DNA of 64,000 nucleotides, taken from Escherichia coli. Lineage in GTDB: Bacteria; Pseudomonadota; Gammaproteobacteria; Enterobacterales; Enterobacteriaceae. Shown in pieces: positions 40,141 through 40,979 of this stretch; within the stretch, counting starts at the first letter, position 1, and each line of letters opens with the position of its first letter. The notes beneath the pieces were generated by a model. The model was not told the origin of the DNA. It did no database searches and saw only the letters and a list, made by a program, of their open reading frames with translations. A program made the position numbers and the translations under genes. The stretch lies in NCBI RefSeq assembly GCF_016903815.1, contig NZ_CP069973.1; one strand, 5' to 3'.

Positions 40141-40161
40141 TCAAGTTCCCGTTGATGTTGA

Positions 40162-40192
40162 AAATCCCGGTCAGAAGATCGGGATTTTTTTG
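40162..40192 (+). terminator. rho-independent terminator hairpin (secF terminator and/or IS200 left-end hairpin)
   Basis: Stem AAATCCCG/CGGGATTT followed by TTTTT; lies at the secF/IS200 junction so assignment is ambiguous. Confidence 0.7.
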
Positions 40193-40334
40193 TGCACAGA
40201 AAACCCCCAGCTAGGCAGGGGGTTCCGGAAAGCTTTCAGCTTTGAGCCAGTTATTAAAACCCCTTTTGATTTGTTAAAACACCTTGCGGTCTGGCAACTG
40301 CAAGTGTCAAACAAGAAATCAAAAGGGGGTCCCA

Positions 40335-40793
40335 ATGGGGAACGAAAAGAGCTTAGCGCACACCCGATGGAACTGTAAATATCACATAGTTTTTGCGCCA
40401 AAATACCGAAGACAGGTGTTCTACAGAGAGAAGCGTAGAGCAATAGGCAGTATTTTGAGAAAGCTGTGTGAGTGGAAAAGCGTACGGATTCTGGAAGCTG
40501 AATGCTGTGCAGATCATATCCATATGCTTGTGGAGATCCCGCCTAAAATGAGCGTATCCGGGTTTATGGGATATCTGAAAGGGAAAAGCAGTCTGATGCT
40601 TTACGAGCAGTTTGGTGATTTGAAATTCAAATACAGGAACAGGGAGTTCTGGTGCAGAGGGTACTACGTCGATACAGTGGGTAAGAACACGGCGAAGATA
40701 CAGGATTACATAAAGCACCAGCTTGAAGAGGATAAAATGGGAGAGCAGTTATCGATTCCCTATCCGGGCAGCCCGTTTACGGGCCGTAAGTAA
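40335..40793 (+). CDS. tnpA: IS200 transposase TnpA (Y1 HUH transposase)
   Basis: MGNEKSLAHTRWNCKYHIVFAPKYRRQVF..., HxH motif (HIHML), catalytic Tyr region (REFWCRGYYVDTVG). Confidence 0.9.
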   Translation: MGNEKSLAHTRWNCKYHIVFAPKYRRQVFYREKRRAIGSILRKLCEWKSVRILEAECCADHIHMLVEIPPKMSVSGFMGYLKGKSSLMLYEQFGDLKFKYRNREFWCRGYYVDTVGKNTAKIQDYIKHQLEEDKMGEQLSIPYPGSPFTGRK

Positions 40794-40979
40794 CGAAGTT
40801 GGATGCAAATGTCAGATCGTGTGCGCCTGTTAGGGCGCGGCTGGTAAGAGAGCCTTATAGGCGCATTTGAAAAACCTCCGGCTATGCCGGAGGATATTTA
40901 TTTGATGTATGGAGATTGCGAAAATCCCCGCATCTTGGGAAACTGCGCGTAACCCTACATTTCATCCAGGTAACTTTTC

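Follow-up and report, generated by a model that had tools for sequence, protein, structure and literature searches.

Positions 40192..40902 of the window (the whole 64,000-nucleotide stretch of Escherichia coli DNA analysed here) almost certainly hold an intact IS200C, a tnpA-only member of the IS200 group in the IS200/IS605 family, which entered the T-tract of the secF terminator in the ancestor of one lineage, would move by peel-and-paste, and is expected to be expressed at a low level. The element is already known and annotated, and as a find it is an ordinary one. In other genomes an identical 901-bp stretch is annotated by RefSeq as secF, an 'IS200/IS605-like element IS200C family transposase' (WP_000526135.1) and yajD, and the isoform name used here rests on this RefSeq/PGAP naming of identical DNA. 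A preliminary description of the window had already placed an IS200 copy between secF and yajD and proposed comparison with the K-12 spacer; that comparison, carried out here, bears the placement out, since the element is absent from the K-12 site.

In alignment, a block of 711 bp on the + strand of the window is missing from the secF-yajD spacer of K-12, and the two sequences agree perfectly on each flank. Where K-12 reads ...GATCGGGA-TTTTTTTT-GATGTATGG, the window reads ...GATCGGGA-TTTTTTT-(711 bp)-T-GATGTATGG, so that a run of eight T in K-12 has become seven T, the element and a single T. This is a clean insertion, and because the eighth T stands alone at 40903 there is no target-site duplication. 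The order from left to right is secF, a hairpin with its T-run, the 711-bp block, the one displaced T, a 76-bp spacer and yajD (Table 1). Since both junctions are T-rich, a single site leaves a three-base ambiguity in the position of the junctions, and the ends were set instead from 7 independent plasmid copies and about 50 Yersinia IS1541 copies. The flanks of those copies part exactly before GTGCACAG or GTGCCCAG and exactly after ...ATATTTATT, and this exact divergence among independent copies fixes the element at 40192..40902. The span first proposed, 40160-40900, must accordingly be moved: its first 32 bases are host DNA. The terminal sequences GTGCACAG... and ...ATATTTATT, read directly, are not inverted copies of one another, so terminal inverted repeats are absent. 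The sole gene in the insert is tnpA, with no tnpB, and no second copy of the left-end hairpin occurs in the 64-kb window. The anatomy and homology of the element, its empty site, the absence of a duplication and its distribution are direct results of the analysis.

Table 1. Features of the IS200C copy and of its host flanks, in positions of the window.
Feature	Position	Strand	Basis or detail
secF coding sequence, host gene upstream	39169..40140	+	RefSeq annotation of identical sequence in NZ_CP023820.1; ORF list
secF intrinsic terminator, insertion target	40160..40191	+	GC core 40165-40172 / 40177-40184, T-run 40185-40191
IS200C, complete, 711 bp, GTGCACAG ... ATATTTATT	40192..40902	+	K-12 alignment; ends from other copies
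GAAAA on the 5' side of the foot of the left-end hairpin; candidate 'left guide' for the TTNTT flank	40199..40203	+	Sequence; putative role
Left-end subterminal hairpin, IS200 bidirectional terminator	40202..40224	+	Folding; function from PMC4513863, PMC5435999
Predicted art200 antisense RNA, ~90 nt, 5' end opposite tnpA codon 3	40255..40344	-	Homology
tnpA 5'-UTR stem-loop, lower 13-bp helix 40260-40272 / 40316-40328	40260..40328	+	Folding; RF01405 alignment
tnpA Shine-Dalgarno AAGGGGGT	40323..40330	+	Sequence; same string in PMC4513863
tnpA, 152 aa, Y1 HUH transposase	40335..40793	+	ORF list, Pfam, NCBIfam, protein alignment
Right end: GAAAAA 40869-40874, hairpin CCTCCGGC-TAT-GCCGGAGG 40875-40893, tail ATATTTATT 40894-40902	40869..40902	+	
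Last (eighth) T of the host T-run, now right of the IS	40903..40903	+	K-12 alignment; right boundary from other copies
yajD (HNH nuclease), 77 bp downstream of the insertion	40980..41327	+	ORF list, Pfam, RefSeq

The element sits between the seventh and eighth T of the secF terminator T-run. All 7 plasmid IS200C copies lie directly behind a GC hairpin and T-run. For a wider survey, one genome per species was scanned for the 24-nt left-end hairpin, which yielded about 120 further copies from Yersinia pestis, Vibrio ruber, Brenneria, Dickeya, Edwardsiella, Pluralibacter and Budvicia, and from MAGs labelled Mailhella/Desulfovibrio, Bacillota, Peptococcaceae, Oxalobacter and Saccharibacteria; the test set consisted of 123 independent, non-tandem left junctions of IS200-group elements. 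A perfect-stem GC hairpin with a T-rich tail ending exactly at the junction is present at 102 of the 123 (83%), against 0.44% of random positions in the same loci and 9.8% of positions that follow a T-rich octamer.

Several regularities accompany this arrangement. Most of the 21 junctions that fail the definition have visibly imperfect hairpins, and the distance from the junction to the final G/C of the stem is mostly 6-10 nt. A logo of the flanks, built from the 123 sites, reads T(96%) T(86%) N T(98%) T(100%), or TTNTT in short. The right end of the element looks like such a flank, being a hairpin followed by a TTATT that ends nine bases on. Several IS1541 copies, L076, L077, L079 and L123, lie flush against a neighbouring copy, its right end meeting their left end.

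One explanation of this position, which we consider possible though on balance unlikely, is that insertions survive there because they are harmless, or that T-runs as such are preferred. These sites fall between genes, on their downstream side, where an insertion does least harm, and a 2025-26 preprint that finds terminator-like sequences to be enriched immediately upstream of IS200/IS605 elements reads them as limiting transposase expression, and the enrichment as persistence through that low expression (10.1101/2025.07.22.666184). A T-run preference by itself is excluded, because positions matched for T-richness give only the 9.8% noted above. Selection by itself fits poorly with junctions placed to the single nucleotide, with T at position -1 in 100% of sites and at -2 in 98%, and with stems that mostly end 6-10 nt upstream; this precision argues for recognition over the survival of harmless insertions alone. 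The IS1541 copies that adjoin the right end of a neighbour, itself terminator-like, also speak against this explanation. Alternative TTNTT sites occur at only 0.9 per 200 nt upstream, too few for targeting to be separated from selection by their use.

We put forward, as a speculation that we rate as rather doubtful, that IS200-group transposases home to intrinsic terminators, reading a GC hairpin with TTNTT 6-10 nt on as a mimic of their own right end (ATATTTATT), with GAAAA pairing to the T-tract, and that the secF terminator was a recognised target that now serves as a silencing layer. In this scheme the transposase would bind the target hairpin as if it were a right end, and the GAAAA beside the left-end hairpin would pair with the T-tract, in the way that the IS608 guide AAAG pairs with its target TTAC (PMC5027513). 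AAA(A) is present at the position of 40199..40203 in all subgroups compared. Alternatively, a pause of RNA polymerase at the terminator might leave the T-tract strand exposed in single-stranded form. In the literature searched, the only related statement on terminator targeting is that of the 2025-26 preprint, and the idea may predate us in older work on IS200 and IS1541. If homing were true, the host terminator would form the first silencing layer, and this could account for the harmlessness and quietness of IS200 and would supply a concrete reason for its long-noted dormancy; the smallest autonomous transposon would follow a structure-plus-motif targeting rule, and it would add to group IIC introns another, independent example of terminator homing.

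The product of tnpA had been described as a 152-aa Y1 HUH transposase of the IS200 type, and this holds in full: it matches Pfam Y1_Tnp PF01797 (E 3.8e-38, 130.7 bits, cut-off 23) and the NCBIfam equivalog transpos_IS200 (NF033573; 147.7 bits, cut-off 55), and is identical over 100% of its amino acids to the WP_000526135.1 copies found on unrelated plasmids. The HUH motif is H61-I-H63 (codons 40515-40523), aligned with the HUH of homologues in the PDB, and the catalytic tyrosine is Y125 (40707-40709), within IQDYIKHQ; Y125F is the catalytically dead mutant of Salmonella IS200 (PMC4513863). The solved homologues include IS608 TnpA (2A6M, 3.9e-19), ISDra2 TnpA (2XM3, 1.9e-16) and archaeal IS200-like transposases. 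The reading frame is intact, with neither frameshift nor stop codon, and tnpA is the only ORF in the element with a family match.

Upstream of tnpA the element folds as an IS200 leader should. The long-range leader stem stands out from shuffled sequence (z = -3.2 to -4.2) and carries an upper stem-loop above its lower helix. Its existence had been recognised beforehand, with the 3' arm placed nearly correctly and the 5' arm (40251-40267) some 5-9 nt too far to the left. Sequestration of the translation start had been proposed with it, and this needs correction: the lower helix hides 6 of the 8 Shine-Dalgarno bases, and the AUG at 40335 lies outside it, uncovered, with a small hairpin of its own predicted around it by folding. 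In Salmonella IS200 the corresponding stem-loop spans nt 69-138, and sequestration of the Shine-Dalgarno has been tested experimentally there (PMC4513863). Rfam RF01405 (STnc490, the art200 locus of IS200) matches 40202-40325 over its full length with 141.3 bits against a gathering score of 56, and is the only Rfam family to reach its gathering score anywhere in the 64-kb window; the match lies on the + strand and art200 is antisense, so it marks the locus and not the RNA. The minus strand of the predicted art200 span folds at -35.5 kcal/mol (z = -5.1). Salmonella art200 is 90 nt long, has 5' ends at nt 153/154 and is complementary both to the 5'UTR and to codons 1-3, and the left-end terminator there occupies nt 12-34 (PMC4513863). 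These Salmonella landmarks (terminator, stem-loop and art200 5' end) match the window features within 1 nt. A consensus scan found no sigma-70 promoter in 40050-41050, and the tnpA and art200 promoters are accordingly left unplaced from sequence, which agrees with the reportedly weak tnpA promoter and the nearly unrecognisable -10 element of art200.

Both ends carry a subterminal hairpin. At the right end, an 8-bp GC hairpin folds at -15.9 kcal/mol (z = -5.0), is terminator-like on both strands and is followed by the tail that ends in TTATT; in a Vibrio copy a compensatory change (CCACCGGC / GCCGGTGG) preserves the pairing of its stem. A match to Ysr202 at 40870-40937 on the minus strand was set aside, as its 30 bits fall far below the gathering score of 315 and it covers the right-end hairpin only. 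At the left end, position 40217 is A in the window copy and T in all other recovered copies, which creates an A.A mismatch with 40209 and weakens the hairpin to -13.6 kcal/mol from -18.7 for the consensus, a loss of about 5 kcal/mol. Because nearly all carriers of the insertion are 100% identical across the junction, including 40217, this A is as old as the insertion or nearly so.

The chemistry of transposition and the regulation set out below are carried over from experiments on Salmonella IS200 and IS608. By homology with IS608 and ISDra2, a TnpA dimer would bind the top-strand subterminal hairpins at 40202-40224 and 40875-40893 and cut past the TTNTT of the left flank and past the TTATT of the right end; a single-stranded circle would be freed and re-inserted 3' of a TTNTT in single-stranded DNA, with no target duplication. 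In models of the IS200/IS605 family, excision likewise proceeds as a single-stranded DNA circle, insertion is 3' of a motif and the lagging-strand template is favoured (PMC5027513). The + strand of the window has a positive GC skew, and the K-12 gene order and orientation are conserved, which together place the top strand of the element on the lagging-strand template, as the model expects.

Expression of tnpA would be restrained at several levels. Read-through from upstream would be blocked by the secF terminator and by the element's own left-end terminator hairpin, which in IS200 is reported to stop ~85% of incoming transcripts (PMC5435999). A weak promoter would lower expression further, the 13-bp helix would hide the Shine-Dalgarno, and art200 antisense RNA together with Hfq would block ribosome binding. 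The window copy is thus probably dormant, and the left-end mismatch may weaken it further; by the loss of hairpin stability that it causes, the A at 40217 could make this copy immobile. To go further and regard it as an immobile relic, kept if at all as a source of small RNA (art200, 5'tnpA), seems to us quite improbable. In favour of such a relic, the A.A mismatch is private to the window copy and falls where TnpA binds, in the left-end hairpin, IS200 is reported to lie all but dormant, and host genes of Salmonella are regulated by its 5' RNA (PMC5435999; bioRxiv 10.1101/2024.06.26.600842). Yet tnpA is intact and its protein identical to that of other copies, and the 17-30 IS200C matches in each of the carrier genomes listed imply past activity in the lineage.

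The distribution of the insertion is narrow. Of 5426 complete E. coli genomes, 99 have the exact junction by a 600-nt query that spans it, and 102 by a 151-nt query that likewise spans it. The uninterrupted K-12-type spacer is present in about 4898 of the 5426, and the other ~430 genomes differ at the site, for example where a parDE toxin-antitoxin pair, which brings its own terminator, stands in place of the secF terminator region. IS200C as such is far more common, with some match in 3096 of 5426 genomes, a near-full-length match in 2063, and up to 35 places per genome. The suggestion that IS200 is patchy in E. coli and the insertion a strain marker is borne out by these counts. A count of 869 carriers, obtained with a 901-nt query at a coverage of at least 80%, was rejected, since the IS and T-run alone make up 80% of that query and copies at other sites were counted with it.

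Of the carriers, YDC107 is ST964, O102:H6, phylogroup D (PMC6035167), and Z1002 belongs to the genomes analysed in a study that sets an ST405 isolate against 28 genomes (PMC9037040). ST131 was considered as the carrier lineage and discarded, given that YDC107 is ST964 of phylogroup D and Z1002 appears in the ST405 comparison. With two strains typed, the insertion looks like the marker of one lineage, possibly around ST405. It is highly improbable that the element was instead ancestral at this site and that the empty sites arose by precise excision. Peel-and-paste excision does reseal the donor exactly, so that an empty site fits 'never inserted' as well as 'excised' (PMC5027513); but the occupied site is confined to the 99 genomes above, nearly all identical across the junction, and the empty site is found in some 4898 including K-12, the carriers YDC107 and Z1002 are placed by these papers in or near the ST405 group, and both excision and transposition of IS200 are reported to be extremely rare. 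The copy is useful as a presence/absence marker of one lineage and matters little otherwise.

The host hairpin into which the element inserted begins 20 nt past the secF stop codon and folds at -17.7 kcal/mol (z = -4.6 against shuffles), with a tail of 7-8 T. An automated terminator scan of the region did not report it, and direct folding confirms the hairpin; the scanner probably missed it on account of A-T pairs that extend the stem into the T-run. The preliminary description had left a hairpin at 40162..40192 to either secF or the left end of the IS. It belongs to secF, because K-12 has the same hairpin without an IS, there with a T-run of 8 T, and on this sequence comparison 40160-40191 is assigned to the host, as the secF terminator, and not to the left end of the IS. 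That it might be the left end of an element starting near 40160, as its direct adjacency and the terminator-like left-end hairpin known for IS200 could suggest, is refuted by the empty-site alignment and has practically no chance of being correct: the identical hairpin and T-run stand without an IS in K-12 and ~4898 genomes, other IS200C copies have unrelated hairpins in the same position, and the true left-end hairpin is that at 40202-40224. This hairpin and the right-end one at 40875-40893 had both gone unmentioned in the first account of the element. Terminator-like hairpins between secF and yajD now number three, and predicted read-through from secDF into yajD is probably reduced by them. 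Because the site lies between the terminator and the yajD leader, a phenotype is unlikely.

A likeness in target choice is found outside the transposons. Bacterial group II introns of class C (IIC) home to a stem-loop followed by a T-tract, land just downstream of it in the same orientation and are transcriptionally shielded there. Their machinery, a ribozyme and a reverse transcriptase, is unrelated, and the likeness is one of target choice only. Such an intron was rejected as the identity of the insert, as no group II intron Rfam family is found in the 64-kb window and the sole ORF of the element encodes a Y1 transposase. RAYT (TnpA-REP) proteins share the Y1 HUH fold and the recognition of extragenic hairpins. 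A RAYT was likewise rejected here: NCBIfam REP_Tyr_transpos scores 32.2 bits against a cut-off of 80, and the element is bordered by the secF terminator on one side and the yajD leader on the other, not by REP sequences.

Within the family, IS608 of H. pylori and ISDra2 of D. radiodurans have a homologous Y1 HUH TnpA and subterminal hairpins, lack inverted repeats, cause no duplication, insert 3' of a motif of 4-5 nt and have their active strand on the lagging-strand template. By contrast with these, the window element has no tnpB, and its motif is TTNTT where theirs are TTAC or TTGAT. A GC hairpin nearly always precedes the IS200-group motif, whereas it is absent from the descriptions of IS608 targets in the literature searched.

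Nearer still is IS1541 of Yersinia pestis, with 87% identity to the window element in DNA and 94.7% in TnpA; both end hairpins and the TTATT terminus are identical, and it too is terminator-adjacent. It differs in starting with GTGCCCAG where the window copy starts with GTGCACAG, and in reaching at least 57 copies in one genome, tandem copies included. The records matched include Salmonella and Yersinia plasmids, with best-match identity bands, pooled over genera, that run from 80-90% to >99%. The type element, IS200 of Salmonella enterica (Lam and Roth 1983; PMC4513863), likewise has a single tnpA with Y125 and the Shine-Dalgarno AAGGGGGT. Its quoted length is 707 bp, against 711 bp for the window IS200C, and its left-end hairpin, Shine-Dalgarno stem-loop and art200 locus share their positions with those of the window copy to within 1 nt.

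Across many taxa, 83% of 123 left junctions of IS200-group elements (loci L003-L130) lie behind a host GC hairpin and T-tract that ends exactly where the element starts, compared with 0.44% of random and 9.8% of T-rich-matched control positions under the same criterion. The flank motif at these junctions is TTNTT, and the secF terminator in the window is an example of such a flank. The right end of IS200-group elements has a shape that matches the hairpin and T-tract of the host flank. In Yersinia pestis NCTC5923, the relative IS1541 occurs in tandem at four loci (L076, L077, L079 and L123) with an exact right end-left end joint, ...ATATTTATT|GTGCCCAG..., consistent with an IS1541 having inserted into the right end, itself terminator-like, of a copy already in place. 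This joint is also the sequence expected of an excised circle junction.

The secF-yajD spacer itself is variable across E. coli genomes, because approximately 430 of the 5426 complete genomes searched lack both the K-12 spacer and the IS200C junction. In some genomes whose SecF, YajD and Tsx proteins are identical (L010, NZ_CM195848.1, 1812-2566), the secF terminator region has given way to parD and parE, a toxin-antitoxin pair that is followed by a terminator belonging to it.

A different, second IS200/IS605-family element occupies window positions 42918-44609, where divergently arranged tnpA and tnpB are flanked by a yajI remnant and nrdR.

Features of the secF terminator target and the second IS200/IS605-family locus in the window
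Feature	Position	Strand	Remarks
secF terminator	40160-40191		Example of hairpin and T-tract target
yajI remnant	42547-42834		yajI annotated as truncated in RefSeq
Degraded Y1 tnpA	42918-43436	-	Frameshifted, internal stop
tnpB/InsQ	43452-44609	+	Intact RNA-guided nuclease gene, 385 aa

The right-end hairpin of the IS200C copy is the full extent of a sub-threshold match (window 40870-40937, minus strand; 30 bits vs a gathering score of 315) to the Rfam family Ysr202, a Yersinia small RNA that probably overlaps an IS1541 end. In S. Typhi, the 102-nt RNA StyR-24 is reported to lie directly downstream of the IS200 tnpA ORF (PMC2943607).

The left-end hairpin of the window copy carries A at 40217, a position occupied by T in all the other copies recovered; because of this replacement, pairing with 40209 yields an A.A mismatch. 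Hairpin energy is -13.6 kcal/mol, vs -18.7 kcal/mol with T, and the mismatch may hinder TnpA from binding or weaken the hairpin as a terminator.

An identical 24-nt left-end hairpin is present, in many copies and often at contig ends, in metagenome-assembled genomes (loci L011-L047 and L069-L072) binned as Bacillota, Peptococcaceae, Mailhella/Desulfovibrio, Oxalobacter, Saccharibacteria and Elusimicrobiaceae. The leading 9 nt of these copies are not those of the E. coli element. The pattern points either to mis-binned contigs or to a very broad IS200-group host range with an invariant hairpin.
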